The translations under genes were made by a program, and so were the position numbers. 64,000 bases of DNA from Candidatus Bathyarchaeia archaeon (GTDB taxonomy: Archaea; Thermoproteota; Bathyarchaeia; 40CM-2-53-6). Below, piece by piece: positions 3,366 to 22,253 of this stretch. Position 1 is the first letter of the stretch. Each line of letters opens with the position of its first letter. Where the stretch lies: NCBI GenBank assembly GCA_049521055.1, contig JBEKPE010000004.1, positions 535 to 64,534 on the forward strand, in the 5' to 3' direction. The notes under the pieces are model-generated. The model did no database searches. It was given only the letters and a program-made list of their open reading frames with translations, and was not told the DNA's origin.

Positions 3366-3367
3366 CC

Positions 3368-5453: not shown

Positions 5454-5477
5454 GATTGTCCCTTCTGCCCCCGATCA

Positions 5478-5909
5478 TCAATGGTCTACTTCCAGAAGGT
5501 ATTCTCGAACATCGAGGTCGTCGTATTCGACATCGATAGCTTGCCTTGGGCAGGCGCCGACGCACTGCCAGCAAAGGAAGCATTCGGGTACGTGGTACCT
5601 AATCGCGAGGTTGACCGGCTTGGGGGACGATATGATGCGTTCATGGAAACTTTCGAGCGCGGGACTGTTCTTCACAAAATCGTCGACTGGCTTGCACCAT
5701 CGTCCGTTCGTGGAGTGTTCAAAGACTGAGCCGGGGCAACTACTGATGCATGCTCCGTCTCCATCGCATTTGCTATAGTCAACCACGAGATAGGGCAATT
5801 CCAACCGCGAAGATGAGATTGAGAGTTCTCTTAAGCATGCGGCATTTACAGCCCGTATTCTATAGAACCCACTAGGAGTTGAACCTCGCAGACAGGGACA
5901 GAGCATCAA
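5478..5909 (-). CDS. 4Fe-4S dicluster ferredoxin
   Basis: The motifs CDGDGACISSCP and CFLCWQCVGACP are present. The true start is probably internal. Confidence 0.5.
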   Translation of the reverse strand: MMLCPCLRGSTPSGFYRIRAVNAACLRELSISSSRLELPYLVVDYSKCDGDGACISSCPGSVFEHSTNGRWCKPVDDFVKNSPALESFHERIISSPKPVNLAIRYHVPECFLCWQCVGACPRQAIDVEYDDLDVREYLLEVDH

Positions 5910-6021
5910 ACAAGAGTGCCCACGGCGAGAACGCCCTTTTTCGTGAATGCGTAAAGGCTCGAATCGAGGCGTTCCAAGCCTAAGAATGGTAAACCAATGT
6001 TTTGTTAGTCGAACCGTGATT

Positions 6022-6037
6022 TGGCGGGCCCGCCGGG
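6022..6037. repeat. 16-nt direct repeat copy (TGGCGGGCCCGCCGGG) identical to the 3' end of the tRNA at 22092-22253
   Basis: This is an exact 16/16 match to 22092-22107 in the same orientation. It corresponds to T-stem 3' half + acceptor 3' strand + discriminator + CCA. It lies in an ORF-free stretch that holds other tRNA-like debris. Confidence 0.5.
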
Positions 6038-6737
6038 TTCCGCATCAAATTTGGTTCTGAAAATGGTACTCTCTTGGGGTCTTTGTTCGGGTTCAAGCCG
6101 TCTAGGGTACGCAACCGGAATTTAGCTTTGTCACAGCTTTGGGATGAAGTGGTGGGATTGGTGGGATTTGAACCCGCGATTCGTAGGACTAATGACGAAT
6201 TTTAGAAGCCCGAAGCCAGAAGGGATTCAAACTCCCTTGACGAGCGAATTCTCCGATTGTCGTCTCACTTTCCGTCAAGTTGTGAATGTTCTGTTGCTCT
6301 AAGCACGTAGATTGACGCTAAGACAAAGACTGCCTCCAGCAGCTTTGCAATGACGCCTCACAAAGAATGGTTGTGAGAGGACACCAGACAGTGTCACCTC
6401 AGCCGCCGACATCGTAATATTTCGTCACCCTCTCCATAGTCCCCATCCGTTTTCGGCATCGGTGCCCGAAATTTCGAGGACACCCGTCGACTAGAAATGA
6501 TAATTGACTAACAACCAATCCACTCATCCTTGTGTGTGTCTCGCGCGCATCTCTTGGGCGCTAGGCCCTGACTGTCGTGAGTTATTACTCGCCTTTAGGT
6601 GCAACTAATATGAGCTGCCTCTGTTTCGGGAATCATTGATTCACGGCGAAAGTCAAAAGACTCGGCAACGAGCACGTTCGGAGCAGCGTCGTAACTGGTG
6701 GGTTAACGGGGTTAGAAAAAGCGCTGAAAATTGCTAA

Positions 6738-6750
6738 TGGATATATACGG
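6738..6750 (+). promoter_or_regulatory. putative TATA box (ATATATA) about 35 nt upstream of the ABC ATPase start
   Basis: ggATATATAcgg sits at 6741-6747 and the ATG is at 6781. The spacing fits an archaeal promoter with a short leader. Confidence 0.3.
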
Positions 6751-6780
6751 AGATTCGAAGTAAGGCAACATCGATAAGCC

Positions 6781-7866
6781 ATGGCCGATGTCAGACTTGA
6801 GGGTTTGACAAAGGTTTTCGGTAGCGTTCGGGCCGTCGATAACGTTGATCTTTACATCAACGACAAAGAATTTCTGACCCTGCTTGGTCCTTCAGGTTGC
6901 GGGAAGACCACGACGATGCGCCTTGTGGCAGGGTTGGAGGACCCGACACAGGGTAAGGTCTACATTGGAGGCAAGTTAGTGAATGATCTTCCTCCCAAGC
7001 TGCGAGATGTTGCGATGGTCTTCCAGAACTATGCGCTTTATCCCCATATGACCGTCTATGACAACATCTCGTTTCCGCTGAGAATGCGTAAGTACCCGAA
7101 AGATAAGATCAAAGAGAAAGTTACAACCACAGCCCAGCTTCTTGAGATCCAAGAGCTTCTAGACCGCAAACCGCGACAGTTGAGCGGTGGCCAACAGCAA
7201 CGCGTTGCCTTAGGCAGAGCGATTGTCCGTGAACCTCAAGTCTTCCTTATGGACGAGCCGCTAAGCAACTTAGACGCTAAACTCAGAATCTACATGCGTG
7301 CTGAGCTAAAACGCCTTCAGAAACGAATTGGGATCACCACGATCTACGTGACACATGATCAGGTGGAGGCGATGACAATGTCCGATCGCATCGCGCTTAT
7401 GAATGCGGGCGCTATTCAACAATTGGCGACGTCGGATCAGATTTACAATCATCCCTCTAACCTTTTCGTGGCTGGATTCGTTGGAAACCCACCTATGAAC
7501 TTCCTACCCTGCGTCCTCCATGAGGAAGATGACAAAACCATATTGGAGGCGGGAGCCTTCAAACTTGACATCACCGACATAAAAGGGACTGATGAATTAG
7601 GCATGACCTCGTCTGAGTTAACATTAGGCATAAGACCTGAGGATATTTCCGTTTCACAACAACGGTCTACTAGCTCCGTGGAAGCCACAGTCTACGTTGT
7701 AGAACCACTTGGATCGGAGGTGCTCGTCAATCTCAAGCTAGGTAATGAGATCGTGAAGGCTAGGGCACCACCAAGCACGATGGTCAAAGTTGAAGACCAA
7801 GTCTATCTCACGTTCAACAAGGATAAGATGCATCTATTCGACAAAACTAAGAAATTGATAATCTGA
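6781..7866 (+). CDS. ABC transporter ATP-binding protein, MalK/UgpC type with a C-terminal TOBE domain
   Basis: Walker A is GPSGCGKTT, the signature is LSGGQQQRVALGRA and Walker B is VFLMDEPLSNLD. Confidence 0.8.
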   Translation: MADVRLEGLTKVFGSVRAVDNVDLYINDKEFLTLLGPSGCGKTTTMRLVAGLEDPTQGKVYIGGKLVNDLPPKLRDVAMVFQNYALYPHMTVYDNISFPLRMRKYPKDKIKEKVTTTAQLLEIQELLDRKPRQLSGGQQQRVALGRAIVREPQVFLMDEPLSNLDAKLRIYMRAELKRLQKRIGITTIYVTHDQVEAMTMSDRIALMNAGAIQQLATSDQIYNHPSNLFVAGFVGNPPMNFLPCVLHEEDDKTILEAGAFKLDITDIKGTDELGMTSSELTLGIRPEDISVSQQRSTSSVEATVYVVEPLGSEVLVNLKLGNEIVKARAPPSTMVKVEDQVYLTFNKDKMHLFDKTKKLII

Positions 7867-8084
7867 ACACATATAACAAAACCTTTTTCCGTCAAGCCCC
7901 AATCAAGCTAGCGTGCAAGCAGCTCCAAGCAATGAATAAGTTTTCTTTGCTATGTCAACTAGCGTCGCCGACCTATGCTTCTAAGCCTCGATCCTTCCGC
8001 ATCTATGCAGCTGGAACGTAGTCCTACACATTTGTCTAAATTAGTTAAAGTCAACTTGACGTTGCCTTTCAACCAGAGCCCTTA

Positions 8085-9083
8085 TTGCTTTGCCTGTCCC
8101 CCCTAAAGCAAGAGAATTTGTCAAATAGGATAAGATTTGGAGTTACTCTTCCAACATGGGATTATGACGTGCCTGATGGAAGTAACCGAGAAGGAGGGAG
8201 GCCCGTAAATTACGATGAAATACTCAATATCGCTTTCGTTTCCGAGAAACTGGGGTACTATTCCATACTTGTAGATGACCATCTGACTCGGGGAAAGGGT
8301 GGCTTCATATACGAAGGTTGGACGATACTCTCAGCGTTATCTGCAATTACCAGCAAAATCCGACTCGGAACGATTGTATTATGTAATTCATTCAGATATC
8401 CTTCGGTGTTGGCTAAGATGGCCTCCACTTTGGACGTTATCTCGAAAGGCAGACTAGAGTTAGCAATGGGGGCCGGATGGATGCAAGAGGAATACGTTCA
8501 GTACGGGATACCATTTCCTGTTGCTAGAGAAAGGATTGGTCGACTGAAGGAAGGTGTGGAGATCATAAGAAGACTTTGGACTGAGGATTCGTTAACTTAC
8601 AGAGGAAAATATTACACACTTGAAAATGCGATCTGTGAGCCAAAACCGGTACAGAAGCCTCACCCACCGATTTGGATAGGTGGAGGGGGAGAACATCTAA
8701 CACTCAGAGTGGTTGCGGAGTCAGCTGATGGATGCAACTTCGGGGGATCATTCGAGGAATACAAGCACAAGCTGGAAGTGCTGAAGAAACACTGTTCGAA
8801 AGCAGGCAAAGATTTTCGTGATTTAGAAAAATCATGGATTGGAAACTTGATAATTTCCTTGGATGAAAGTGATCTGAAGCAGAAAATGAATATAGTGAAG
8901 CCTCAAAACGTGTCCCCTGAAGATTACGCCAACTCAAACATTGTAGGAACTCCCGAGCAATGCATAGATCGAATCAAAGAATATTCAGACTTTGGCATAA
9001 CTTATTTTGTATTCAATGGTTTTTCCATGTTAGGTGTAGATGATCTAAAGTTGTTCGCCGAAGAAGTGATGCATAGTCTGTGA
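8085..9083 (+). CDS. luciferase-like monooxygenase (LLM) family, F420-dependent-type oxidoreductase
   Basis: It has LLM-family spacing of conserved Gly/Trp: LGTIVLCNSFRYP...PHPPIWIGGGG. Confidence 0.55.
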   Translation: MLCLSPLKQENLSNRIRFGVTLPTWDYDVPDGSNREGGRPVNYDEILNIAFVSEKLGYYSILVDDHLTRGKGGFIYEGWTILSALSAITSKIRLGTIVLCNSFRYPSVLAKMASTLDVISKGRLELAMGAGWMQEEYVQYGIPFPVARERIGRLKEGVEIIRRLWTEDSLTYRGKYYTLENAICEPKPVQKPHPPIWIGGGGEHLTLRVVAESADGCNFGGSFEEYKHKLEVLKKHCSKAGKDFRDLEKSWIGNLIISLDESDLKQKMNIVKPQNVSPEDYANSNIVGTPEQCIDRIKEYSDFGITYFVFNGFSMLGVDDLKLFAEEVMHSL

Positions 9084-9123
9084 AAACCCTTGATGACAAT
9101 TGCTGGAGCGAAGTTCGATCAAA

Positions 9124-10101
9124 CTATGCAGCAAGCGGTAGAGGTAGCGTGTAGCTTGGATTCTTTCCTATCCAGTCAACAAATTCCTTAACTCCCTTAT
9201 CCAGGCTGTACCGCGGCCTATAGCCCAGTTCCTCTTGCGCCCTCGTTAGGTCCAGCGTGTTTCTAGGCAGAAACCTTTCCATGGGGGCCCAGATTCCGGG
9301 ATGCACCTTTATTTGCGAACCTGGTATTGTCTTCATAACTGTATCCGCAAGTTCAGACAATGAGTATGATCTGCCACCGCTAATATTGAAAATGTAATGT
9401 TTTATGGGCCTAACTGAATAGGCTAAGAATATACCCTCAGCAATGTCTCGTACATAGGTAAGGTCCAGAGTATTATTGGCTCCAATCATCTCATAGGGCT
9501 CGCGAGCGAGAGCCTTCGATATGAAGAACGGAATAGGCGGAATCGCTACTTGCTGATTCGGTCCGTAGATACATGAACCGCGTATAACTACAGCATCCAA
9601 ATTATGCGCATCATGGTATTTAGTTGTCAACAACTCAAGCATATACTTGTGCACGGCGTAAGTAACAGATGAACCTGAACCCCATGACGAAAATGATTCA
9701 TCCTCTTTTATCGGCTTAAGGTCCGGAGAAAATTTCGCACCGTAGACTGAAGCAGAACTCATGGAAACAACTTTTAGATTTTTTAACCTAGCTGCTTCTA
9801 GAACGGTCGCCGTCCCGTCAACGTCCACCTTAAAGCTCCAATCTGGGAACTGATTCAGATCCTTCAACCAGGCGGCCGTGTGGATTATGCCCTCGACATT
9901 GAACTTTTCTATAAGGTCCAATATCCGGGATAGATCTCTAATGTCTCCAAATTCGAGCCTCACTTTACTAGAGACTTCATTCAGGAAATCAACTTTACGG
10001 GGCGCGATGTCGTAACAAATAACACTGTAACCTTCGTCAACAAACTTTCTTGCTGTACTAGCCCCTACTTCGCCGGTTCCACCTGTCACTAGGACAGACA
10101 T
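9124..10101 (-). CDS. NAD-dependent epimerase/dehydratase (extended SDR)
   Basis: The N-terminus is MSVLVTGGTGEVG, and a YxxxK-type catalytic region is present. Confidence 0.6.
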   Translation of the reverse strand: MSVLVTGGTGEVGASTARKFVDEGYSVICYDIAPRKVDFLNEVSSKVRLEFGDIRDLSRILDLIEKFNVEGIIHTAAWLKDLNQFPDWSFKVDVDGTATVLEAARLKNLKVVSMSSASVYGAKFSPDLKPIKEDESFSSWGSGSSVTYAVHKYMLELLTTKYHDAHNLDAVVIRGSCIYGPNQQVAIPPIPFFISKALAREPYEMIGANNTLDLTYVRDIAEGIFLAYSVRPIKHYIFNISGGRSYSLSELADTVMKTIPGSQIKVHPGIWAPMERFLPRNTLDLTRAQEELGYRPRYSLDKGVKEFVDWIGKNPSYTLPLPLAA

Positions 10102-10134
10102 ATGATCCTCACCACCAATTACCCTACCTATTTG

Positions 10135-11841
10135 TTATTCAAGGAGGCTTGAATACGCTTTTATTTCTTCTCCCTCTTGCCTGATTATAATGCTCTTCAT
10201 TTGGTCTTGGTCATCCCTGCTAGGATAATCATCGCGATAATGACTCCCTCTACTTTCCCGTCTGAGCAAAGCTGCAGTGGTCAAGATTTGCCCCACATCC
10301 AGCATGTTCCGGATCTCTAGTGCATGAACCAGTTCTCCCTCATTTTGTATACAAAGATCAAGTAAATGATGCTTCATGATACGTTCCAATTCCATCTTAC
10401 ATTCATTCAGGCCTCTTTCGTTTCGGACGACCAAAACATTTCTCCACATGACTTCCTGTATCGCTTTTTCTGTTTTTGTGACGTCTATTCCTGCTTTAGC
10501 TTCTCTAATTCTTGCAAGCCGTTCGTATTCTTCGCTACCATCTGCGGTTATCTGATCATTGATGGTCAGTGCTCTCTTTGCAGCAAATTCTCCAGCTCTT
10601 GCCCCAAACACCTGGCAATTTGCTAACATGTTTCCTCCAAGCCTATCAGCTCCATGCATCCCTCCCGTGACTTCGCCTGCCGCGTACAGACCCGGCAACG
10701 TAGTTTCAGCTTTCTCGTTAATCCTAATTCCGCCGTTGAAAGCATGAGCAAAGAGGGCCACCTCGAGCAAATCGGTCATCGGATCAATACCGCGCGTGCG
10801 GAGCCATTCCAGCCACAACTGATGGCGCTCGCGCATTTTAGATTCAGCGATGTTTCTGAGATCCACGTATACGCCTCCATTTCTTGTACCTCGGCCTTCC
10901 TTTATTTCATTAAACATCGCTATGTCAATGTACTTCGATTCGTCACTGGTACTGAACGGCCAATGCAAGGCCCTCAAGCTAAGACACCTATTCAGGTTTA
11001 CATCACGGGGCATATACTTCTCGAGAAAGCTTTCACCATCTACATTATACACACGTGGACGTAATGGCCAAACCTGATTTGTGAATAAAAGTGGGCGAGT
11101 TTCATCGGAGCGAACTATGCCCATTCCTATTTGAAGAAACTCCATGTTTACCAACTCCACACCTGCTCTAAAGGCGATTGCATAACCATCCCCTGTTATG
11201 CTTGGAGGATCAAAATTCAATCGATACAACATTCCAGCCCCACCAGTTGCCAATATAGTCGACTTCGCAATGAAGACGATGAAGTCGCCTTTTTTGCTGA
11301 TTCCCGTCGCCCCAGCACAAGCATTATTTTGAGTCAGAAGGTTCGTTATCATCACATTTTCCATGACTTCGATGTCTCTTCGTTCAATTTCCTTCTTGAG
11401 CACGCTAAGAATAGAGTTTCCGTGATTCTTGGTCTCGCACATCCTAGGACGAGAACTGAAGCATCCCAATCGTTGAGCATATTTACCGTCCGACTTCTCG
11501 AACCTTGCACCCCATTTTTCCAGATCAAGGAGTCTTCTAGGGGCTTCATAGGCTACAATCCTAGCAAGCCTTTTGTCACACATTCCCAATCCCGCTTGCA
11601 CAATGTCGGAGAAGTGCACAGCAGGATTGTCCATTGGGTCCGCATGTCCAAAAGCTGCCTGATATCCCCCAGCGTGAGAAACCGCAAAACTGGTTGCGCT
11701 GCTTTCGCTCCCACCAAAATGTCCTTTGGTGACCATTAACACATGAGCACCTCGTTCGTCTGCCTCTATGGCAGCCCTAGCCCCGGCTCCACCGCCTCCA
11801 ATCACTAAGACATCTGCTTTGATGACGCTTCCACTACTCAT
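10135..11841 (-). CDS. FAD-binding flavoprotein of the succinate dehydrogenase / fumarate reductase / L-aspartate oxidase family
   Basis: VLVIGGGGAGARAA is the FAD-binding site, and RRESRGSHYRDDYP matches the RxxxSRGxHxRxDYP family motif. Confidence 0.7.
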   Translation of the reverse strand: MSSGSVIKADVLVIGGGGAGARAAIEADERGAHVLMVTKGHFGGSESSATSFAVSHAGGYQAAFGHADPMDNPAVHFSDIVQAGLGMCDKRLARIVAYEAPRRLLDLEKWGARFEKSDGKYAQRLGCFSSRPRMCETKNHGNSILSVLKKEIERRDIEVMENVMITNLLTQNNACAGATGISKKGDFIVFIAKSTILATGGAGMLYRLNFDPPSITGDGYAIAFRAGVELVNMEFLQIGMGIVRSDETRPLLFTNQVWPLRPRVYNVDGESFLEKYMPRDVNLNRCLSLRALHWPFSTSDESKYIDIAMFNEIKEGRGTRNGGVYVDLRNIAESKMRERHQLWLEWLRTRGIDPMTDLLEVALFAHAFNGGIRINEKAETTLPGLYAAGEVTGGMHGADRLGGNMLANCQVFGARAGEFAAKRALTINDQITADGSEEYERLARIREAKAGIDVTKTEKAIQEVMWRNVLVVRNERGLNECKMELERIMKHHLLDLCIQNEGELVHALEIRNMLDVGQILTTAALLRRESRGSHYRDDYPSRDDQDQMKSIIIRQEGEEIKAYSSLLE

Positions 11842-11874
11842 TTGCGTGCCCCACAGAGAAGGCTTGAATGAGGA

Positions 11875-12789
11875 CTAGTTTACAAGCGCTAGATGTTTCA
11901 GAGTTCTCCTTACTTGCGCCCTACGAATATCATCAATTCCGATTAGCGGGTTCCTTACTGTGCTAGTTGAAATCACTCCCAACATAACCAGAGCCTCTTT
12001 GCAACATGGAATGTAATTTGGCTCGCAAAGCGCGACGTTGATGAAAGGCAATATCTTATAGAAGACATCCCATGCTTCATCGATCCGCCCTTGCATGAAT
12101 TTTTCGTATAAATCCACAAAATGACCCGGCAGAACCGCCGGTGCTGCCACCGTAAAACCCGCGGCTCCTCTCTCCAAGAACTGCATTGCAAGAACTTCCT
12201 CTCCACAGAAGATCGTTAACTTGTCACCGGCGAGCTTCCGCACATCAGCGACCTTTAGAGGATCTGAAAGACTTATTTTGAGGTATTCCACGTATTTTTC
12301 TTTGAACAATCTCGCTATAGTGGAGGCCTCCAGGGTTACTCCGGTAGCAGTCGGGTTATCGTATAGAATAATCGGTATCTTTACTGACTGCGCAATTTTG
12401 CCAAAGAAACCCAATAATTCTTCCTCTCCCACTCGACTAAATCCACCTTTGAAATAATACGGAGCGCTGATCAACAAGGCAGCTGCTCCCGCTTTCTCTG
12501 CATGAGTAGCAATATCAATCGCCACCTTTGGACTCGTATGACTTGCGCATCCGATCACTGGAACTTTTCCCTTAACACGGTCAATTACAATCTCGAGTCC
12601 TCTTTTTCGCTCTTCGGTACTAAGCGACGGAGACTCACTCGAGCTTCCGCCATACAAGACCCCATGTACACGATTTGTTAGCAGGAAATCCGTATGTTTT
12701 TCCAGGCTTTGCACATCGACTTCTTCAGTGGCGTTGAACGGCGTCAACATAATCGGTATGACGCCGTGAAGTTTTCCTGTTTTGTTCAT
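11875..12789 (-). CDS. DapA/KDG-aldolase family lyase (dihydrodipicolinate synthase-like)
   Basis: The TIM-barrel N-terminus IPIMLTPF and a Schiff-base Lys context, YVEYLKIS, are present. The length is right for this family. Confidence 0.65.
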   Translation of the reverse strand: MNKTGKLHGVIPIMLTPFNATEEVDVQSLEKHTDFLLTNRVHGVLYGGSSSESPSLSTEERKRGLEIVIDRVKGKVPVIGCASHTSPKVAIDIATHAEKAGAAALLISAPYYFKGGFSRVGEEELLGFFGKIAQSVKIPIILYDNPTATGVTLEASTIARLFKEKYVEYLKISLSDPLKVADVRKLAGDKLTIFCGEEVLAMQFLERGAAGFTVAAPAVLPGHFVDLYEKFMQGRIDEAWDVFYKILPFINVALCEPNYIPCCKEALVMLGVISTSTVRNPLIGIDDIRRAQVRRTLKHLALVN

Positions 12790-12845
12790 GTTAACGCCAG
12801 CCCTAACTAATTGGCGAATCTGTTAGTTAACGCGAGTCTTTTTGA

Positions 12846-14204
12846 TCAGGTTTGCGTTGTGGTGGTGGAGGTCGATTCTCCTTCAATTAGTGCTGCGGCG
12901 AATTGGTTAGCCATTTGTTGTGCTGTAATCTGCCCTGCCAGCGCCTCATCAAAGAGGGTTACTCCAGTTGTGCCTGCAATTCCTCCCCATGACGGGTACG
13001 GACTAATGTTGTACGGAACTAGCCCAAGGAATGATGAGGAATAAGCGAACGCGGCCATGTGGAGATCGGCAGAAAACACTGGAAGAGCGGCAACACTCTC
13101 GCGCGGTGGAACCTGAACGATCTTTTGGTTCCATAGACTCATAGCCCAATCCGACGCCATGAATTGAATGAGCTTCCATGCTGCATCCTGGTGCGTACTG
13201 CCGCTCATAAGGCCAAGGAGGTATTCGCCCATGTACGAGACTCTCTTCCCTGTTGGCCCTATGGGAATAGGTGCCGTGCCCCATGTAGGATTAGTCGCGG
13301 TCCCATTACCCGGATTATAGCCATTCTGATCTTGTACCCCGGCGCAATTGTGAATGTACATCGACGTTACCCCTCTGCCAAAGTCTGCGCTCATCTGTGC
13401 CCAACCGTCGCTTGGGGCACTTGGTGGACATACTTTGTACTTAGTGCACAAGTCAACGTACCATTGTAATCCTTGGACTGCTTGCGTGCTGTTGACTACG
13501 ACTTGACCACTCGAATTTACAACATCGCCCCCGAAAGCATACATAAAGGTCGTAGCATACTCGACGGAACCCGCGCCAGAGCCTCTCATTCCGAAACCAT
13601 ATTGTTGCGTCCCGTTCACTACGCGGGTTAAAGCCAACGCGTCCCGTAGGAAGTCATCAGTTGTCCAGTTACCATTTGGCAGCGGAAGTCCAAGCTCCTT
13701 GAATCGATCAATTCTATAGTAAACGCCATCGTTATACATCGTAAATGGGACACCCACTATCTTTCCATCCCTAGTAGCCGGTTCGAGAGCGATATGATTG
13801 AAATCATTGAAAACTGTTATTCGCTGCGTTAAGTCCGATAAGGCACCCATGCCGTAAAGCGTTCCAACTAAGTAATCAGGCATAAAGAATACGTCTGGAA
13901 CAGTACCGGACGTAACAGCTTGTATTATCTTCGTACTTTCGAGGGTCTGAGGATAGGACACTAGGTTTACTTGGATGCCTGGGTTCTGCGCGGTAAAATT
14001 GTTGAATATCTCTTGAAACGTGTTAACCCTTAGCTGATCATAGAGGGTCCAGAAAGTTAGCGTAACAAGCGGTTGTGAAGTACTCTCTGTGACACTAGTT
14101 GTCGGTCCTGATTGTGAAGTGTTCTGTTGGACATACCATGCAACAGCACCCACCATCAGAGCAACGATCACGACTGCGGCGATTATCTTGACTTTATTAT
14201 CCAT
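12846..14204 (-). CDS. ABC transporter substrate-binding protein, family 1 (CUT1 sugar-type), membrane-anchored
   Basis: There is an N-terminal TM/signal anchor. The body has SBP-1-like composition and the gene is in an operon with two MalFG-type permeases. Confidence 0.6.
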   Translation of the reverse strand: MDNKVKIIAAVVIVALMVGAVAWYVQQNTSQSGPTTSVTESTSQPLVTLTFWTLYDQLRVNTFQEIFNNFTAQNPGIQVNLVSYPQTLESTKIIQAVTSGTVPDVFFMPDYLVGTLYGMGALSDLTQRITVFNDFNHIALEPATRDGKIVGVPFTMYNDGVYYRIDRFKELGLPLPNGNWTTDDFLRDALALTRVVNGTQQYGFGMRGSGAGSVEYATTFMYAFGGDVVNSSGQVVVNSTQAVQGLQWYVDLCTKYKVCPPSAPSDGWAQMSADFGRGVTSMYIHNCAGVQDQNGYNPGNGTATNPTWGTAPIPIGPTGKRVSYMGEYLLGLMSGSTHQDAAWKLIQFMASDWAMSLWNQKIVQVPPRESVAALPVFSADLHMAAFAYSSSFLGLVPYNISPYPSWGGIAGTTGVTLFDEALAGQITAQQMANQFAAALIEGESTSTTTTQT

Positions 14205-14429
14205 TAAAAATCGAGCCGTAACCGACTCAAACGTATTTAAACGTGGTTCGTGGATTCACCCTTTGAAAAAGTCCGATGGATACGGCTGAGAAGAGACCTG
14301 GGTAATACCATTGAAGACCAGATGAAATAACTGCTTAATCCACTCCCATCGTTTGCTAATACTGTATTTACGGTGTCGGTAACGGGTCTCAATTTCAACG
14401 ATTTTCATCCTTGGAAGAGTACAGCCATT

Positions 14430-14885
14430 CTAACCTGCAGTTTTCCTAATCTTGGTGACAATTTTGATAATTCCCAGATTTCCATCTACGTAGACGTGAT
14501 CGCCAGTCATTGTTTCCTTAAAGATTTCCGCATCTACGTTATCGACTAGCGGGATCTGCACATTGTAGAATTTCTTAGCGAGAACGGGCCCGGCCACAAG
14601 TACGGGATCAGAGTTCATAGCAACAATTGCAGCGGGGCCTCGTTTGTTTCTCACTGCTTCGAGAAAGATCCCTGATCCTCCAGTAGATCCTCTGAAGTTG
14701 CGAATAATGAGGACTTTGTTGGTTATGTTCATGCCTTTGATTTTTTGTCTTGCATCCTGCACATCTCCTGATATAGGGTCAATGTCACCCACTAATCCCA
14801 AAGCCTGGTCAAACACTAATGCTTCGCCCTCGGCGATACCGCCAATCAATGCTCTTCCCCTAAAGGTCTTGTAAGGCACGCTCAC
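14430..14885 (-). CDS. aconitase X (AcnX) small subunit, DUF126
   Basis: It is about 150 aa and sits immediately downstream of the AcnX large subunit. The Gly-rich GSTGGSG stretch is what this family carries. Confidence 0.55.
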   Translation of the reverse strand: MSVPYKTFRGRALIGGIAEGEALVFDQALGLVGDIDPISGDVQDARQKIKGMNITNKVLIIRNFRGSTGGSGIFLEAVRNKRGPAAIVAMNSDPVLVAGPVLAKKFYNVQIPLVDNVDAEIFKETMTGDHVYVDGNLGIIKIVTKIRKTAG

Positions 14886-14892
14886 AGACCTC

Positions 14893-16128
14893 TTATTCCA
14901 CTCTCCCAGTTATTGCCGCTTTGATGCATTCGCTTGTACTCGCATAAATGACGTTCGTCTTGCATGACATCGGCGAATAATGCGCCATCTTTGCAGAGTT
15001 AGTTACCATGGTTTTGAATCCGCATAGGTACGTAGGAATAGTTAAGCAGCAACTATCAGTCATTATCTTCACACCTGACTCTCTCAGTATGCTGGCATAG
15101 CCCATCTTCTCTGCCAGGGCGTTCACGATCCTATTCGTGCTAACCCAAAATTTCACGCCGTCGTGAACTTTCTCGCCCTTCAATAAAGCAGCCAGTTCAC
15201 CTATTTCACTTATTGTGCTGTGAGGGCAACCTATGTTAACGAAATCTATATCGCATCCTCCTATGATGGTTGAGAGTTTCTCCTTTGTATCTTTCAAATC
15301 CTCTGGCCCCAACTCCAACTTGTCCTCAGGCTCTTCTTCGCCGAAAGCTTCCTGTAAGGTTCTGGCTTCCGGCGTCACTCCGACAACATGGTATAATGCT
15401 GCCGCACCAGAAGAGGCCATTGCAGCGCCGAACGACACCAACTGGCTATTCTTTACACTCTTAGGAATTCCTTGGATGACTGGTATTCCCTTGATTACGT
15501 CTTCTCCGATTCTGTATCCTAACAGCGGATAATCTTCATCAGACAATTGCTTGAACCCTTTAACATTGACCAGCACATTGCCACGTCTATTTTCAGCTAG
15601 ATGAAGGCCAAATTCTGGAACTAGTCCAACGATTGCAGCGCACAAGTCCACATAACTGGCGTATCTATTTGTTCTAGCGCCTATTACTGAGTTCGCATAT
15701 ATTACACAGTTTGACTCGGCCCAAGCAATTTGTTGACCAAACCTTGGAACATTAATGTGATAATAGGGGGTGCAGGTCCATATGGGAATGGCCCCGATCT
15801 TTTCCAACGCTCTCGCCAATCTCAACTGTTTATCTGCCCAACTGTCAGGCACACCAAACTCAGTCCAGTGGTCGAGTGGACTCGCTCCTGTGACTATACT
15901 CGTTGGAATTCTTACGCTCGCGCCCTCTTCTGCAAGTTTTTCACAAATTTCGACTCCTGCATCGTACGTCAAACGATAAGATCCGCATACAATATTGGCA
16001 CTTTCAACCTTAATCATCTTATTCGCATTATAAGCTACTCCAAGATCAACCAGGATCTCCATCGCAAGCCTAGTTGCTTCTCCATACTTCCCCTTTAACA
16101 TCATTTCTTCTTCGTTATTTAGATACAA
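14893..16128 (-). CDS. aconitase X (AcnX) large/catalytic subunit, DUF521: phosphomevalonate dehydratase or cis-3-hydroxy-L-proline dehydratase type
   Basis: The N-terminus MYLNNEEEMMLKGKYGEATRLAMEILVDLG fits the AcnX family's Fe-S dehydratase fold. The substrate cannot be assigned from sequence. Confidence 0.6.
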   Translation of the reverse strand: MYLNNEEEMMLKGKYGEATRLAMEILVDLGVAYNANKMIKVESANIVCGSYRLTYDAGVEICEKLAEEGASVRIPTSIVTGASPLDHWTEFGVPDSWADKQLRLARALEKIGAIPIWTCTPYYHINVPRFGQQIAWAESNCVIYANSVIGARTNRYASYVDLCAAIVGLVPEFGLHLAENRRGNVLVNVKGFKQLSDEDYPLLGYRIGEDVIKGIPVIQGIPKSVKNSQLVSFGAAMASSGAAALYHVVGVTPEARTLQEAFGEEEPEDKLELGPEDLKDTKEKLSTIIGGCDIDFVNIGCPHSTISEIGELAALLKGEKVHDGVKFWVSTNRIVNALAEKMGYASILRESGVKIMTDSCCLTIPTYLCGFKTMVTNSAKMAHYSPMSCKTNVIYASTSECIKAAITGRVE

Positions 16129-16528
16129 AGGATCACTACGAAGAGCAATAATGGTTTCGCGTGAACATCTCTCGACCCATTAATAACTTCTTGTCTGCAC
16201 TTAGCAATCAAAAGATCACGTCCTTAACTTCTTGACGAAGAAAACGAGAGGGCTAACGGTTCAGTAGTTGCTACTCCGCGACACCTTGCCTCAATATTAT
16301 CAGGCGAAAGGGTGGGATCCAGTCAGAAGCATACCGACAAAGGAAAAACTGAGGGAGTTAGGACTGGCTGACATAGCGGAAGAGTTCTCGTCTTAACCAC
16401 CATATTGCTCACCACGTATTGCCCACATCGCTTCTCAAGGTGCAGTTCAATGTCAAAACCATGCGATCCAAGATTGAACTCAATCATGGAGTAATAACTA
16501 GGTAACTCTTACCACATCTGGATTATGC

Positions 16529-17380
16529 CTAATGTTTCACGGCTCCTGTGACTAAACCCGAAATTAGATATTTTTGGAAGAAGGCAAAAAATACTAGGAC
16601 AGGGATAAGGGAAATCATTGTTGCAGCCGTCAGGATATCCCAACGTACCCCAGTTTGCCCAAACATGTAAAGCAATCCTGCCGGTAAAGTCGTCCTGGCT
16701 TTGCTGTTGATGAATGAGACGGCAAAGAGCAATTCGCCCCAACTAGATACGAAAGCATATGCAGCACTAGCAGCTATTCCAGGAGCGGCGAGAGGTAACA
16801 CGATCCTGATTAACGCGTCAAATCTCCCGCAACCATCCACCATCGCACTCTCTTCTATTTCGTATGGAATTGTTTGGAAATATCCCATTAACATCCACAC
16901 CGTAAACGGGACGGTAAAAGTAAGATATGATAATATCAAGACTTGATAAGTGTTAAGCAATCCAAGATAACTCCACTGACTTAAGAGGGGAGTAATCAAC
17001 AATGCGGAGGGAAACATCTGCGTGGTTAGAAGCAAAAGCGCTACAATGCCGCTCCCCGCGAACTTGCCTCTCGCAAGGCTATAGCCGGCGAACATAGAAA
17101 CAAGAATTGTGATGAGAGTAGTTGATAGAGAAACTATAACGCTGTTCATAAGAAATGTGCCAAATGGTGCCGATGGCTCACTCCATGCCTGTACATAATT
17201 GATTAGAGTGGGCTTAATCGGAAGATAAGACGATATAGGATACTCGTAGATTTCAGTATTTGGTTTCAGTGATGTCAAAAATGTCCATATCAAAGGAAAA
17301 GCAAAGAATGCCAGCAGCAATACTAACGTAGGAAGAAGAAGTGCCCATTTGATCGTATTTTCATTGAGGCGTCGTCGCAC
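16529..17380 (-). CDS. ABC transporter permease (MalG-like, CUT1)
   Basis: The EAA loop reads EESAMVDGCGRFDALIRIVLP, and there are six TM segments. Confidence 0.7.
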   Translation of the reverse strand: MRRRLNENTIKWALLLPTLVLLLAFFAFPLIWTFLTSLKPNTEIYEYPISSYLPIKPTLINYVQAWSEPSAPFGTFLMNSVIVSLSTTLITILVSMFAGYSLARGKFAGSGIVALLLLTTQMFPSALLITPLLSQWSYLGLLNTYQVLILSYLTFTVPFTVWMLMGYFQTIPYEIEESAMVDGCGRFDALIRIVLPLAAPGIAASAAYAFVSSWGELLFAVSFINSKARTTLPAGLLYMFGQTGVRWDILTAATMISLIPVLVFFAFFQKYLISGLVTGAVKH

Positions 17381-17384
17381 GAGT

Positions 17385-18272
17385 TCACTCGCCCCCAGGT
17401 TTTACTCCCTTAAGCATTTTGTAGTACACTATGGTGAACCCTAATACTAGGATAAGTGTGAAAACTGACAGGGTGGCTGCATATCCGAAGTTAAAGAGTT
17501 CATAAGCCGTGATCAGTACGTAAGAAGCAAGTATCTGAGTAGAGTTCGCTGGTCCACCGTTTGTCATAATAAATATTAGATCTGGATAATTAAACGTCCA
17601 AATTATACGGATTACAGTTGAAATGATTATTGTGGGCTTAAGCGTAGGAATAGTGATGTGGATGAACCTTCCCCACATAGACGCACCATCCACGCGAGCA
17701 GCTTCATACAATACGTTAGGGATAGCCTGAAGTCCAGCCAACAAGATTATGATAAAGAACGGGGCACCCCTCCATAAATTAGCAAGAATAATTGACAACA
17801 GCGCTGTTGATGTATCACTTAACCACGGAATGGCGTGATGTATCAGTCCCGTTTTCATGAGCAAATCATCTATCAAGCCGAAATTTGGATCGAGAAGCCA
17901 ACCCCATATTATTCCGACAACAGCACCGGGTATCGCCCACGGGAGGATCACTACAGATCTAACAAGTCCTCTCCCTCTGAACTTCTCGTTCAGGACTAAA
18001 GCCCCTATAAATCCCAAGATGAATTGAGAAAATACGGATAGAACCACCCAGATAAGCGTATTCTGCAACGCAACCCAAAAAACCGGATCTGTGAATAACT
18101 GCTGATAATTAGCTAAACCTATGTAATGTACCTCATTGGGTAGATACAATATGTTTTGTTGAAAACTCATATTAATGGCTCTCAAAATCGGTACATAAAC
18201 AGTCGACGCTAAGCAAAGCACGGCAGGCAGTAGATAGAGATAATCGGATATATCCTTCGTTTTATGGGGCAT
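17385..18272 (-). CDS. ABC transporter permease (MalF-like, CUT1)
   Basis: The EAA loop reads YEAARVDGASMWGRFIHITIP, and there are multiple TM helices. Confidence 0.7.
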   Translation of the reverse strand: MPHKTKDISDYLYLLPAVLCLASTVYVPILRAINMSFQQNILYLPNEVHYIGLANYQQLFTDPVFWVALQNTLIWVVLSVFSQFILGFIGALVLNEKFRGRGLVRSVVILPWAIPGAVVGIIWGWLLDPNFGLIDDLLMKTGLIHHAIPWLSDTSTALLSIILANLWRGAPFFIIILLAGLQAIPNVLYEAARVDGASMWGRFIHITIPTLKPTIIISTVIRIIWTFNYPDLIFIMTNGGPANSTQILASYVLITAYELFNFGYAATLSVFTLILVLGFTIVYYKMLKGVKPGGE

Positions 18273-18839
18273 GAATGATCACAAGTTCGAGATATCCCCC
18301 ATTATTACACATAAAATATTTTCTTTAATCAGCCGAGACGCGCCCTACTTCGAACAGAGTCGCTTGCAATACGGCAGACGAAACAGCAACGGCACTTAGC
18401 AATCTTCGAAAACGAAACTGGTGGAGTTTGAGCGCTCTCCCGCCCGAGGTCGCAGGCACAGATCTCGATCATTATGCCTTTGAAGTATGAGGAATTGTCC
18501 GAGAACAACAAGCTGGCACCTCCAGTCAAAGATATTCTAATCTTTGGACCTACAGTATGCGGTAAAAGATGCGCGCGCAATCGCAAAATCCATTAGCGTT
18601 TCCTTCATACACCGGTCTGGAACAGATCGACACACGAAGCTTTCGGTGAAAGCGCGGCACATGCACGTGAGATGTTTCTTGAAGCAGAGAAAAACACTTG
18701 GACACACTAGATACTATAGATGAGAAGTTCAGGTAGTTGGATGTCTTGTTCCAAGGAGCGGTGGGGGACCGCCGCATCAGAGGCCGGAAGCTTTGAAGAT
18801 GTAGTAGTTCAGTATGAATAAACGTAAGAAGCACATTCT

Positions 18840-19874
18840 TTGCGGATAGGTCGTGACTTTATGAACTATGTTAGACTTGGAGACAGCGGACTAAGAGTTT
18901 CTGAGATTTGTCTTGGCACTTGGCATCTTCCGAGGTTGACGGAAACTGATCAGTATGGGATACCGAAAGTGGACGCTGAAGAAACGAGAAGGGTAGTGAA
19001 TCTGGCTTTTGATCATGGCATAAACTTCATTGATACTGCGAACCGATACCATGGAGCGATGGCTCCAGTTGATTTGAATCATTATGGAAACGCTGAGAAG
19101 GTCCTATCAGACATACTCAGAGACCACGAAAGAGAGAGCTTTGTGTTGGCCACGAAGGTGGGGGCCGAAATGGCACCCTGGCCGAATGGACGAGGTCTGT
19201 CAAGGAAACACCTGTTCTGGCAAATAACCGAAAGTTTGAAGCGATTAAAACTGGAATACGTGGACGTATATTTGGCTCATATTCCAGATGAGGAAACGCC
19301 GCATCTGGAAACTTTGCAAGCTCTCAATGACCTAGTCGCAATGGGGAAAGTTCACTACATCGGTTGTTCCAACTTCACGACAGAACAGGTCATTGACTTC
19401 ATGGAGCTTTCCAAAGTGCATGACTTAGTCAGCTTTGTTACACTCCAAGACGCATATAGCCTAGTCAACCGCAGCATTGAATCCAACAAGCTACTTCTAG
19501 CTCACAGGTACAACTTCACAATTATGGCGTATTCTACACTAGCTCAAGGATTACTGTCCGGCAGATATCTAGACGGAGTTCCAGTTGGATCAAGAGCAAC
19601 GTATTCCCAGAGCCTCAAGAAAGCATTATCTGAGAAGAACTTGGACTCCTTAAGAAAATCATCCACCTTAGCCAGCGAGAAGGGTATCTCGCTATCCCAA
19701 CTCGCTATTGCATGGTTGCTTCACAAGCAGAGAAAACTTGGCGTCAGCATAATTCCGATCATCGGAGTATCAAACAGAGAACAACTACTAGAAAATCTTC
19801 AAGCATTAGAAGTTCACCTATCCGAAGGTGACATGTCAAAAGCGGAACAGATTGTGCTCTCAATCCAAGTCTAG
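18840..19874 (+). CDS. aldo/keto reductase
   Basis: The N-terminus YVRLGDSGLRVSEICLGTW is AKR-family, as is the overall length. Confidence 0.7.
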   Translation: MRIGRDFMNYVRLGDSGLRVSEICLGTWHLPRLTETDQYGIPKVDAEETRRVVNLAFDHGINFIDTANRYHGAMAPVDLNHYGNAEKVLSDILRDHERESFVLATKVGAEMAPWPNGRGLSRKHLFWQITESLKRLKLEYVDVYLAHIPDEETPHLETLQALNDLVAMGKVHYIGCSNFTTEQVIDFMELSKVHDLVSFVTLQDAYSLVNRSIESNKLLLAHRYNFTIMAYSTLAQGLLSGRYLDGVPVGSRATYSQSLKKALSEKNLDSLRKSSTLASEKGISLSQLAIAWLLHKQRKLGVSIIPIIGVSNREQLLENLQALEVHLSEGDMSKAEQIVLSIQV

Positions 19875-19887
19875 CTTTCACTAATGC

Positions 19888-20973
19888 ATGTTACAAAACG
19901 CTGTTCAGCACAGGACTGAGACCTTGCAGTGGACATTCTTTGGTGAACTCGATTGCGAGTTGGGCGTGGTGGTGAACGTCCACCATATCATACGCCCTCA
20001 ACTCTTGTATAAAAGGCGGTTTCTATACGATGTTGTCAAGACGACGCTCGTGCGGCCGTGTACGTTCCTCAACAGGTAGCCCAGCCAAGACAGCTGGAGT
20101 CGATCGTGAGCTCCTCTTGGACCTAACATTGTTAATTCGTTCGAAAGCAACATTGTAGAGTTCGTTGTTTAGATGTTGTTGGTGTGAATTCCCCAAATCT
20201 TCAGCCCTTTCGCATTCTCCAGAGAGATCCTCAAGAAAGCAGTAGTAATCGCAGAATCCCGGGGCTTCAAACTAGTTCACGGCATTGTCGACTCCATGTG
20301 GCTAAAGAAACCTCAAGCAACAGGAGAGGAGTACAAGCGAGTTTGCGAGCAAATAGGGGAGGAGCTTGACATTCCTATAAGCTTCGAAGGACGCTACAAG
20401 TGGATTGTTTTCCTCAACTCACGAATCGACACTAGGGTTCCCGTGCTCAACCGATACTATGGGGTCTTTGAGGACGGCACGCTCAAGGTCAGAGGAATCG
20501 ACCTAAGAAGACATGACACTCCGGAAATAGTGAGAAAATGCCAGGCAGAGATGCTATCCATACTGTCCAAAGCGGACAACTCTGACGAGTTCCGAGAGCT
20601 CGTGCCAAGAGCGCTTAGTGATGAAGCATTACGTATCACTTCTGATGAGCGGCAACGTTCCAGTCAAAGAATTAGTGATAGAGAAGCGCCTCAGCAAGAT
20701 GCCCAGCGAGTAGACCAATCTAATTCCCCAGGCAATCGCGGCAAGGCATCCGTCCGTGAAGGAAGCCATGTTCATCCTGGACAGAACATCAGCTTCGTCA
20801 TAAGTCATAATGATTCAGGGATAGCGGACAATCGCGCTTTGCCTGTTGAACTCGCCGACGAGACCACGCCATACGATGCCGCCTCCTATGTCGAGCTCAT
20901 TCTCTCTTCTGCGTTGAACTTGTTCTTGCCCTTTGGGTTTGATCTCAACACGTTAAGAGCGAAAACACAGTAG
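19888..20973 (+). pseudogene. family-B DNA polymerase C-terminal (palm/thumb) remnant with a degenerate catalytic motif and in-frame stops
   Basis: 20296..20973 aligns with the PolB thumb: GIDLRRHDTPEIVRKCQAEMLSIL against Pfu [24 protein letters not shown], and the C-terminus carries ISNRA..EEYDP..YDAxYY-like spacing. Reading the same frame upstream gives KLVHGIVDSMWL where motif C YGDTDS should be, so both Asp are lost. Further upstream the frame gives NIVNSFES, which resembles motif B NSxYG, but stops at 20170 and 20185 break the frame. No exonuclease or N-terminal domain is present. Confidence 0.5.
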
Positions 20974-21273
20974 AATTCGTCAGTATACTTCGCAACCCAG
21001 CTGCGTATCGGAGTGTCGTAATTATCAGGAAGGCATACTCCGATGGATGATCTTGTTCTTGGGACTGTAGATGTAGGCATTCAGGGAAGTTATGGTTGCG
21101 AGTAAAGTGGGCGCCATGCAACTACAAACGCGTCGCCCACATCTGCCAGGTGATAAAAGAGTAACCTACTGGTAGCTTGGGAACGATTCCGGACATCTCA
21201 CCTCCGAGCATTCTTGCAATCGTTTTCAAATCTCTCTCATATTTGGTTCAGAAGAGGATGCTGATGTTCATGG

Positions 21274-22041
21274 CTATCTCATGGCTGGATCAAACTCGCT
21301 GATCTTGTGATGCTGAACAAATCTCGGACGAGTGGAGATGCTGGTAACAGCTTCTCTCCGTGAGCTTCCCGAAAGCGAAGATAGCGTTGAATGCCTATCG
21401 TAAGCTTCTGGGGTGATGAAAGTGACGTATTCTTCTGGTTCTCCTTCGTACACAGTTAGCCTAGCTGCTATCGCTTTTCCATCTCTATCGAGGGACTTCA
21501 AGCCTCTGATCTTCAGATAGTCCCATGCACCGACACGAATTGCGGACGACACCATGACGAGAACTACGACCTCAACTCGCATGTCCGGATAGCGTATCAG
21601 CCTCCTCAGTTCTTCCACTGCCGGAGCTCGGTCAAGTGCATACCGCCTGAAAGAGGGAATCTTCTTGTTGATCTTCTTCCAGTTCAGCGTAACATCGTTC
21701 ATTTCAAGAAATAATTTCACGGGTTTCTTGAAGTTCGGAACCGTGCTCTCTGAGATTTCCTTTTTCCTAACCCTATCCTTCTGAACCATGATGTACTCGA
21801 TTATTTTGGATTCGACCCAGGGCTTGTTGTTTCGTGATTTGTCGAAAAAGCTGTTCGGAGTCTCGCCCAACCAGTCGAGGAATCGCCAGAACCTGCGCTC
21901 ATATTGCAGCCACGTCTCTTCAGCCCTCACAGCCTCTCGGAATATCCTGACTGATTCGCCTTCGAGGTGCGGTATCCTTCTCTTGGTCAAACCTTTCTTC
22001 CATCTTCCAAACCCGACCAGTCCGCAATAGGCTTGGACCAA
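21274..22041 (-). pseudogene. tyrosine recombinase/integrase (archaeal SSV/pNOB8-like), C-terminally truncated
   Basis: The core-binding/box I region LRRLIRYPDMRVEVVVLVMVSSAIRVGAWDYLKI matches R..T.EE..KL..........ALI..L..TGLR..E. A KAIAARLTVY hairpin Lys follows. The ORF stops before the HxxR/Tyr box, and it starts 50 nt from the 3' end of the tRNA. Confidence 0.55.
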
Positions 22042-22091
22042 AGGTCCCAGCCTAACCTGAAAGATTCAGTACCGATTCAAGAACCAAAAAT

Positions 22092-22253
22092 GTGGCGGGC
22101 CCGCCGGGATTTGAACCCGGGACCCCTCCCCAAGCTAGCTTCTAAGCCAAGCTTTTCGGGTGGCTTCCCATGGGTTCGAAACGCCCAGAGGTAAAAGCCT
22201 CACCAACGCCCACACAGCGTCACCGATGCTCTACCTGACTGAGCTACGGGCCC
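22092..22253 (-). tRNA. tRNA gene with intron(s), 162 nt, encoded CCA, identity not assigned
   Basis: On the minus strand: 5' GGGCCCG-TA-GCTCAGTCAGGTAGAGC...CCGGGTTCAAATCCCGG-CGGGCCC-G-CCA 3'. The acceptor stem is perfectly paired and the D and T arms are canonical, with about 85 nt of extra internal sequence. Confidence 0.75.

Follow-up and report, generated by a model that had tools for sequence, protein, structure and literature searches.

We analyzed a 64-kb window of DNA from Candidatus Bathyarchaeia archaeon, an uncultured archaeon of soil or peat (the whole stretch of 64,000 nucleotides from contig JBEKPE010000004.1), in which a segment of 16 kb (positions 6022–22108) lies between a lone copy of a tRNA 3' end and an intact, intron-containing tRNA gene that ends in the same sequence. 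On the inner side of the intact tRNA gene the segment contains the remnant of a tyrosine integrase gene (int), followed by a piece of a family-B DNA polymerase (PolB) gene and by a set of transport and catabolic genes (Table 1). A first-pass annotation, made from the sequence alone, had read this arrangement as a decayed integrated element of pNOB8-type layout with a metabolic cargo. Its central claim, a metabolic island bounded by two attachment-site (att) copies, is supported by our comparisons, while some of its details change. Related loci were obtained with the HtrA-like protease encoded beside the tRNA as a query (~20 loci, 71–96% amino acid (aa) identity), and 16 further close relatives were retrieved from metagenomes with the flavoprotein of the left flank.

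The tRNA gene at the right boundary was recognized by the Rfam tRNA model at 22096–22253 on the minus strand, with 43.7 bits and long insertions; inclusion of the CCA gives the coordinates of Table 1. In an alignment of 21 orthologues the sequence CTTTTA and the exon blocks are invariant, CTTTTA is flanked by the pairing stem halves UCGGG and CCCGA, and the hairpins between the exon blocks vary with compensatory changes. With three introns taken out, the inferred spliced form folds as a canonical tRNA-Lys(ttt) in ARAGORN, and we conclude that the target gene is probably tRNA-Lys(UUU). A single-intron call by the same program, "Leu(tag)", was rejected, as its anticodon sits in one of the variable hairpins whereas CTTTTA is invariant among the orthologues. 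A fourth intron of ~20–29 nucleotides (nt) in the D-loop is present in 12 of the 21 aligned orthologues (loci L001–L020, around the tRNA-Lys gene), indicating that it was gained or lost within the clade. Introns are common in the tRNA genes of the window, being present in five of six (22093–22253, 26086–26239, 31686–31800, 41430–41563, and 41656–41810), and with default settings ARAGORN detects only the tRNA-Asp among the six.

The repeated sequence, TGGCGGGCCCGCCGGG, is an exact 16-mer on the same strand at both sites. The parts of the tRNA to which it had been assigned in the first-pass annotation are confirmed, but the right copy lies at 22093–22108 and not, as given there, at 22092–22107. 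The core contains a 12-nt palindrome, GGCGGGCCCGCC, and if mismatches are allowed the identity reaches 19 nt at 95% (6019–6037 versus 22090–22108). Allowing at most two mismatches, two further copies were found in the window, at 31686 and 41430, where 0.05 matches are expected by chance; both are 3' ends of other intron-containing tRNA genes, in agreement with the recurrence that had been reported. Across 1.26 Mb of DNA from related loci we counted 27 exact copies of the 16-mer. The T-arm context of a tRNA-Lys gene accounts for 24 of these. Of the three lone copies, two represent the distal site of the window, as assembled independently from two metagenomes (L045 and L062), and one lies in locus L047. 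The 16-mer is therefore almost confined to tRNA-Lys genes and is rare elsewhere, and does not behave as the generic GC-rich repeat or palindrome that the first-pass annotation had named as a possible refutation. The distal junction is 100% identical in L045 and L062, which rules out an assembly chimera. Second copies of the 16-mer in L003 and L022 were examined as candidate att relics and rejected, since they belong to complete tandem tRNA-Lys genes.

The open reading frame (ORF) next to the tRNA has no Pfam match and a weak match to XerA (E 2.4e-5). Locus L074 (JGI Ga0455671_0000147) encodes an intact integrase of 385 aa, P0128, in the context HtrA – tRNA-Lys – int. In a tblastn comparison, residues 1–198 of P0128 match the window at 90% aa identity and residues 199–228 continue in another frame; the frameshift lies near 21396, and the homology stops abruptly at 21305/21306. 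Six residues are invariant in a 30-member alignment of the family (R152, H276, R279, H301, Y309, and Y310). The window integrase keeps R152 alone, the catalytic HxxR, His, and Tyr being gone, and truncation at codon 228 makes the gene non-functional. The truncated tyrosine integrase recognized beside the intact tRNA in the first-pass annotation (21274–22041) is thus real and represents the N-terminal 60% of the protein. Over 932 nt, window positions 21306–22236 are 91.6% identical to L074, whereas the adjoining host genes reach just 83–85%, indicating that the element is younger than the split of the hosts. The stretch from the integrase breakpoint to the PolB piece (20974–21305) has similarity neither to the L074 element nor to any related locus.

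Standard domain annotation largely misses this integrase family. Against the PF00589 cutoff of 27.1 bits, the window ORF and P0128 give no match, and the integrase of locus L007 (CAWIHH010000003.1) and protein P0140 reach 21.4 and 25.0 bits, respectively; some members of the family do carry precomputed PF00589 matches. A hidden Markov model profile of the family yielded only a marginal XerA match among PDB sequences, and it was a fold search that settled the assignment: the AlphaFold2 model of P0128 (pLDDT 85.8) matches XerA (5hxy), Cre, XerH, lambda Int, and Tn1549 Int with E values of 2e-7 to 1e-4 and a probability of 1.00. On the basis of this model the P0128 family belongs to the tyrosine recombinase superfamily, with a predicted two-domain fold, and we regard it as a divergent tyrosine recombinase of the classical (lambda-like) type. 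It comprises 3,708 homologues (E ≤ 1e-5), the named ones being from Bathyarchaeia, Thaumarchaeota, Nitrososphaerota, and Nitrosotalea. No BLAST similarity was found to any PLSDB or INPHARED record, pNOB8 (NC_006493) and SSV1 included, tblastn of P0128 against PLSDB gave no match at E ≤ 1e-3, and the profile comparison with SSV1 Int was insignificant. The proposed comparison with SSV and pNOB8 integrases thus reveals no sequence relationship. Searches of IMG/VR with the attR pattern, the attL pattern, and the integrase as a single protein retrieved nothing, and the family profile retrieved relatives of only 25–26% identity.

Directly after the CCA, the element-side junction (P' arm) of the window starts with CATTTTTGGTTCTTGAATCGGTAC; it is nearly identical in L074 and recognizable (CATTnTTG...GAAnCGGTACC) in L001, L007, L011, L071, and L072. 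Integrase genes at the tRNA-Lys site occur in different states: L074 and L007 have an intact or intact-like gene, the window has 60% of it, L011 keeps a shorter piece, and in L001 nothing but the P' arm of ~40 nt is left. These form a decay series at a single attB. In L007 the intact-like integrase gene directly follows the same tRNA-Lys and is accompanied by mobile-element genes. The arm of the window is of the L074 subtype, and that of L001, although a close relative of the window, is of the L007/L011 subtype, which indicates that the tRNA-Lys site was hit independently. Within their first ~10 kb the intact elements encode an ATPase of 700–800 aa (weak DUF87, HerA_C, and TrwB_AAD_bind matches), winged helix-turn-helix regulators, and many small ORFs. 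Members of the element family come from Bathyarchaeia of soil and peat. In L071 (Ga0314860_0000757) a member lies at a tRNA ending in CCCCGCGGGCCCGCCA, the variant that is also present at window positions 31686 and 41430. As a separate observation, two genes resembling cytochrome bd subunit I (28748–29791 and 29895–31466; region 28709–31684) adjoin the 3' end of the tRNA at 31686–31800, a one-mismatch att variant, and this pair is absent from L001 and present in L002. In L072 (9650–10010), P-arm-like sequence, a core (GGGTCCCTCCGGACCCGCCA, in no detectable tRNA), a P' arm, and int are contiguous, with a second integrase element (431 aa) just upstream; these parts may form a tandem array or may be arranged as in an attP.

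At the distal end, the lone att copy is followed by an ORF-free stretch in which the first-pass annotation had reported tRNA-end debris. We confirm a tRNA-like 3' fragment at 6149–6188, GGGTTCAAATCCCACCAATCCCACCA on the minus strand, which gives a weak tRNA-like match and is 77% identical to the tRNA-Lys end over 31 nt. The same arrangement of fragment and core is found in L047 (13656–13811), where an 18-nt att copy stands alone at 13796, at a distance of 12 kb from the tRNA-Lys gene; the fragment lies 125 nt upstream of the core there and 113 nt in the window. Local alignment of the two fragments gives a score of 30 (shuffle maximum 28), and a short similarity at the matching distance from the core in L072 scores 27 (shuffle maximum 26). 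With moderate confidence, we propose from these likenesses that 6038 to ~6220 is the P arm of the element. On the other side of the lone 16-mer, the window reads (in tRNA orientation) AATCACGG, and native tRNA-Lys trailers read TATCACGG in L008, TATCACGA in L009, and CAATCCCCG in L047. This likeness weakly supports the view that the original tRNA end was displaced.

Two further observations concern the att regions. By eye, GTACCGATTCAAGAACC (22069–22085) and GGTTCTGAAAATGGTAC (6051–6067) form an imperfect inverted repeat in which 13 of 17 positions agree. In a reconstructed attP its two halves would lie on either side of the core, and its GGTAC part is kept in most P' arms of the family (GATAC in L001, GGTAT in L072), but we did not rely on this repeat. 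The lone att copy of L047 would lie ~2.8 kb to the left of window position 1, and the 12 kb that it bounds enclose the proline-dehydrogenase-like/ferredoxin cluster that forms the left flank of the window, so that this flank may itself sit in an older att-bounded island.

The first-pass annotation had proposed an alignment to close relatives, and this shows the 16 kb to be missing from relatives that share both flanks. In L047 (94–95% nt identity) the tRNA ends at L047:1808 and the left flank of the window (from 5883) resumes at L047:4171; the 2.36 kb in between encode a response regulator and a histidine kinase. In L002 (~87% nt identity) the flanks are separated by 2.76 kb with genes for PNPOx, a zinc-dependent alcohol dehydrogenase (Zn-ADH), and a DUF5818 protein. 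No part of window 5922–22091 was found in any related locus, and island genes are missing from all of the ~40 related Bathyarchaeia loci. The island is likewise absent from L001, where the HtrA protein is 96% identical. There (L001:11240–20948), the ~40-nt arm behind the same tRNA-Lys is followed by a different catabolic cluster, encoding a GFO/IDH/MocA oxidoreductase, an amino-acid permease, a DUF4380 protein, an MR/MLE enolase, an LLM oxidoreductase, an SMP-30 gluconolactonase, and a xylose-isomerase-like TIM barrel protein.

Composition also sets the segment apart, as a check suggested by the first-pass annotation now demonstrates. With the 64-kb window as reference, the GC content is 0.464 in the island and 0.521 in the rest, GC content at third codon positions (GC3) is 0.43–0.49 in cargo genes versus 0.53–0.61 in flanking genes, and the tetranucleotide distance is highest over 8–22 kb. 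The cargo annotations were confirmed by Pfam (Table 1). The broader statement that everything between the repeats is cargo stands with regard to the genes listed, but these may not all stem from a single element, since both the composition and the presence of two truncation scars point to a mosaic. Among 5.8 billion proteins, the best non-self homologue of the AcnX large subunit is 56% identical, and the neighborhoods of the nearest AcnX homologues show no synteny beyond the large and small subunits. Identical copies of cargo proteins, the SdhA/TfrA-like one among them, were detected on contigs of the same population and on no others; a second NCBI protein of the same metagenome-assembled genome is MGA3108107.1 (locus tag ABSD99_01400). 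Taken together, the cargo genes represent a predicted capacity for the uptake and breakdown of sugars or organic acids, without counterpart in the nearest relatives.

The left flank (1–6000) contains a proline/opine-dehydrogenase-like set, consisting of a DAO-family subunit, a 535-aa protein with Fer2_4 and Pyr_redox_2 domains, and 4Fe-4S ferredoxins. The best NCBIfam match of the island AcnX is cis-3-hydroxy-L-proline dehydratase, far below the cutoff, and a functional link between the two sets is possible. At window position 2675/2676, within the DAO-family gene (ORFs 2139–2720 and 2626–3228, minus strand), 134–135 nt are missing compared to L045, an independent JGI assembly that is otherwise 100% identical. 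This stretch is kept in all relatives checked (L002, L047, and L048), with a single ORF of 364 aa in L047 and L002, and the gap is either a true frameshifting deletion or an assembly error.

Homology of the PolB piece is confined to 20227–20970; no PolB similarity was detectable at 19888–20226. Homologues of this C-terminal part (C-part) are free-standing proteins of 224–436 aa, nearly all of 224–310 aa, the best non-self homologue being 69% identical. In the two contexts examined (L075:6434–8675 and L076:6501–8747) the C-part follows a gene for a 466-aa PolB N-terminal part (N-part), which identifies the protein as the C-terminal half of a split PolB; no sequence resembling the N-part was detected in the window. 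HGIVDS takes the place of DTDS in the window and in the C-part of L076, the one homologue inspected that covers this motif. The degenerate polymerase fragment previously assigned to 19888–20973 therefore does include PolB homology, but it corresponds to an intact-looking C-part gene rather than to an evident mobility gene. A role as a replication gene of the element, in the manner of casposons or pipolins, was considered and rejected: the gene is half of a split PolB whose homologues do not lie beside integrases in the two contexts, casposons and pipolins need a complete PolB plus Cas1 or a piPolB, and no Cas1 is found among the window ORFs. Nothing ties the C-part to integrase elements. The PolB pair of L075 clusters with several RadA/Rad51 paralogues, DUF8156 proteins, and another PolB of 681 aa.

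Table 1. Features of the tRNA-linked segment and its boundaries in the 64-kb window, in order of position.
Feature	Position	Strand	Basis or remark
Stretch between attR and ferredoxin gene, proposed displaced native tRNA trailer	5884–6021		Trailer likeness
att core, distal (attR)	6022–6037		Lone tRNA-Lys 3'-end copy, outside any tRNA
ORF-free distal end, proposed P arm	6038–6780		No ORF of ≥70 aa
MalK-like ABC ATPase	6781–7866	+	PF00005, TOBE_2, OB_MalK; GC3 0.55, host-like, unlike the 8085–19874 block
F420-dependent luciferase-like oxidoreductase	8085–9083	+	PF00296; TIGR03560, 237.6 bits, above cutoff
NAD-dependent epimerase/dehydratase	9124–10101	-	PF01370
SdhA/TfrA-like FAD flavoprotein (NCBI MGA3108099.1)	10135–11841	-	PF00890, PF02910
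DapA/DHDPS-family aldolase or dehydratase	11875–12789	-	PF00701, E 1e-53
Extracellular solute-binding protein	12846–14204	-	PF01547, PF13416
AcnX, small and large subunits	14430–14885 (small), 14893–16128 (large)	-	PF01989 (small), PF04412 (large, E 1.4e-141)
Two CUT1-type ABC permeases	16529–17380, 17385–18272	-	PF00528; GC 0.42–0.44
Aldo/keto reductase	18840–19874	+	PF00248, E 2.5e-66; GC3 0.47
Orphan C-terminal gene of split family-B DNA polymerase	20227–20973	+	NCBIfam NF004416, E 2.9e-33; ORF 20296–20973, 225 aa
Spacer between integrase breakpoint and PolB C-part gene	20974–21305		Read as rearrangement scar
Integrase pseudogene, codons 1–228 of a 385-codon tyrosine recombinase	21306–21990	-	tblastn with P0128; mechanical ORF 21274–22041
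Element-side junction (P' arm), directly after CCA	22042–22092		Conserved across element family
att core, proximal (attL)	22093–22108		Last 16 nt of tRNA; T-stem 3' half, acceptor 3' strand, discriminator, CCA
tRNA gene, probably tRNA-Lys(UUU), three introns; proposed attB	22093–22253	-	Rfam tRNA, orthologue alignment, ARAGORN on spliced form

Both att copies are present, the integrase remnant has intact homologues at the same site, the segment is missing from close relatives, and its composition deviates. We interpret 6022–22108 as the relic of a site-specific integration, a tRNA-linked genomic island, with a probability of roughly 0.8. An island origin is further supported by the lack of close relatives of the cargo (at most 56% identity for AcnX and 69% for the PolB C-part), while HtrA homologues reach 71–96%. 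In the mechanism that we propose, recombination between the attP of an L074-type element and the 3' end of the host tRNA-Lys(UUU) gene would have been carried out by a classical lambda-like, non-suicidal tyrosine integrase, with strand exchange within the 16–19 bp of identity that include the palindrome. The tRNA would have remained intact, with the P' arm and int now behind it (attL), and the old tRNA end would have been displaced by 16,071 bp, to lie now beside the P arm of the element (attR). Decay would then have brought the int frameshift and the loss of codons 229–385 and of the core genes, in an order that we can only suggest. The mechanism predicts an empty-site junction ...TTCAAATCCCGGCGGGCCCGCCA|AATCACGG... 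and a circular attP junction ...GATGCGGAA|core|CATTTTTGG... The island is no longer able to excise on its own.

Several results weigh against this interpretation. The exact empty site, with the tRNA followed directly by the left flank of the window, was not found: L047 and L002 each have different, unrelated genes at this place, and no metagenome contig gave an exact match to a pattern in which T-loop and core run straight into the trailer of the window. An att of 16 bp is short, the match to native trailers comprises only 7 of 8 nt, and the similarities behind the P-arm assignment are modest (z ~4–6). The first ~10 kb of the intact relatives contain typical mobile-element genes only, without a metabolic operon, and no second core copy that could mark their attR was found in the 10-kb flanks of L007, L071, L072, and L074, the elements exceeding these flanks. 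Moreover, the low-GC block at 8085–19874 has host-like GC3 at both ends; together with the truncated int and polB genes, this GC mosaic suggests a mosaic history rather than one element with its cargo.

Whether the cargo was aboard at integration or replaced the interior of the element later is a matter of roughly even odds. Later replacement is favored by the two truncation scars, by the low-GC block with its host-like ends, and by the fact that int, but not the cargo, has a close relative. Carriage is favored by the presence of one element end on each side with no other att, integrase, or insertion sequence (IS) inside, and by the cellular-type genes that lie behind the same arm in L001 and inside the att-bounded 12 kb of L047.

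In another explanation, which we consider unlikely, the int remnant, the PolB piece, the low-GC cargo, and the distal att stem from separate events at a recurrently used tRNA-Lys 3' site. The 16-mer at 6022 may then be the attR of an older element, and the cargo may have been inserted or swapped by illegitimate or homologous recombination. Such a history would account for the three different fillers in three close relatives (the 16 kb of the window, the two-component genes of L047, and the three genes of L002), for the catabolic cluster of L001 behind an arm of the L007/L011 subtype, and for the lone att copy of L047, which encloses cellular-type genes only, the left flank of the window among them. 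The scars at the int 3' end and the polB 5' part and the GC mosaic fit it as well. Separate events are less easily reconciled with the finding of exactly one element-type end at each side of the segment; in addition, no second integrase or transposase, no other att copy, and no terminal repeat of the IS type lies within 6038–22092. This explanation and a single integration differ mainly in timing, both describing relics of site-specific integration.

Loss of an ancestral region from the relatives, with the 16-mer at 6022 due to chance or to the recombination between tRNA-derived sequences that the first-pass annotation had offered as its alternative, could draw on the GC-rich, partly palindromic nature of the 16-mer, the like ends of two other tRNAs in the window, and the missing perfect empty site, but is very improbable and largely refuted by the chance expectation of 0.05 even with two mismatches, the lack of other lone copies in 1.26 Mb save the analogous L047 site, the absence of the island genes from ~40 related loci, the deviant composition and lack of close homologues of the cargo, and an int remnant that is closer to L074 than the backbone is.

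As a relic of site-specific integration, the locus has the layout of a classical (class II, lambda-paradigm) element; it lies outside the pNOB8 integrase family and is not of the SSV type. With class II archaeal elements (She et al., 2002, 2004; PMC8371274), it shares the tRNA 3'-end target and the direct repeats of the tRNA end. It also shares an unsplit int beside attL: in L074 int starts ~100 nt after the CCA, and the window remnant is found at the same place. The intact relatives encode a large DUF87/HerA/TrwB-like ATPase, as do conjugative Sulfolobus plasmids. The earlier designation as pNOB8-type therefore holds for the layout, with an int not split by integration, but not for the sequence. 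The class II or pNOB8-type integrases are characterized by an R...YxxR...Y motif (She et al., 2004, via PMC8371274), the family criterion being 30% identity over 60% of the protein. Here the YxxR is replaced by H276-x-x-R279 (HGFRKFF), pNOB8 Int gave no tblastn match, and its hhalign probability against the family profile was below 1% (0.84%). In addition, pNOB8-type att sites span 40–50 bp, compared to 16 nt exact and 19 nt at 95% in the window; the DUF87 protein of pNOB8 (630 aa, the one compared) has no BLAST similarity to the ATPase of the intact relatives; and the host, mesophilic soil Bathyarchaeia, differs from the class II examples. No conjugation machinery (VirB4/VirD4-type ATPases or mating-pair genes) was found within the window.

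Short att sites of 8–16 bp in intron-bearing tRNA genes have been documented for archaeal integrated elements (PMC8371274). The integrated elements of Thaumarchaeota (Krupovic et al., 2019, via PMC8371274) are likewise cryptic and use intron-containing tRNA targets, with att sites as short as 8 bp, and among the annotated members of the integrase family described here are proteins of Thaumarchaeota, Nitrososphaerota, and Nitrosotalea. The thaumarchaeal elements differ in host class, and in that the window holds a decayed relic. Bacterial islands with P4-type integrases share the tRNA target, direct repeat, adjacent integrase, deviant GC, strain-specific cargo, and decayed mobility genes, whereas the present island has an archaeal host, a multi-intron tRNA, and an integrase below the PF00589 gathering threshold. 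SSV-type (class I, suicidal) elements have in common a tyrosine recombinase and a tRNA target, but their attP lies inside int, and the gene is split to both ends. Here the int start is ~100 nt from att, int is undivided in L074, and no C-terminal int piece was found near 6022.

Genomic islands linked to tRNA genes are, as such, well-established biology. Bathyarchaeia are abundant uncultured carbon degraders in which catabolic gain and loss have mostly been inferred from gene-tree conflicts. The locus described here is a concrete, datable case, with an integrase family that has a defined multi-intron tRNA-Lys target, a decay series, and a strain-specific island. It provides a testable attB/attP pair together with the intact integrase P0128, and draws attention to a large archaeal integrase family that is missed by standard Pfam annotation. 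As a tentative extension, which we think less probable than its converse, the 3' end of tRNA-Lys(UUU) may be a hotspot of cassette exchange in soil and peat Bathyarchaeia, served by this very large and essentially uncharacterized integrase family (>3,700 homologues in Bathyarchaeia and Nitrososphaerota), with elements that ferry strain-specific catabolic operons or nucleate their capture. If so, the conserved tRNA-like fragment found ~115–125 nt from the core would have a function within the attP arm of the element, and sister strains would differ in substrate range at a single locus, which holds the AcnX/CUT1 island in the window, a sugar-acid island (MR-MLE/GFO/gluconolactonase) in L001, and a two-component system in L047.

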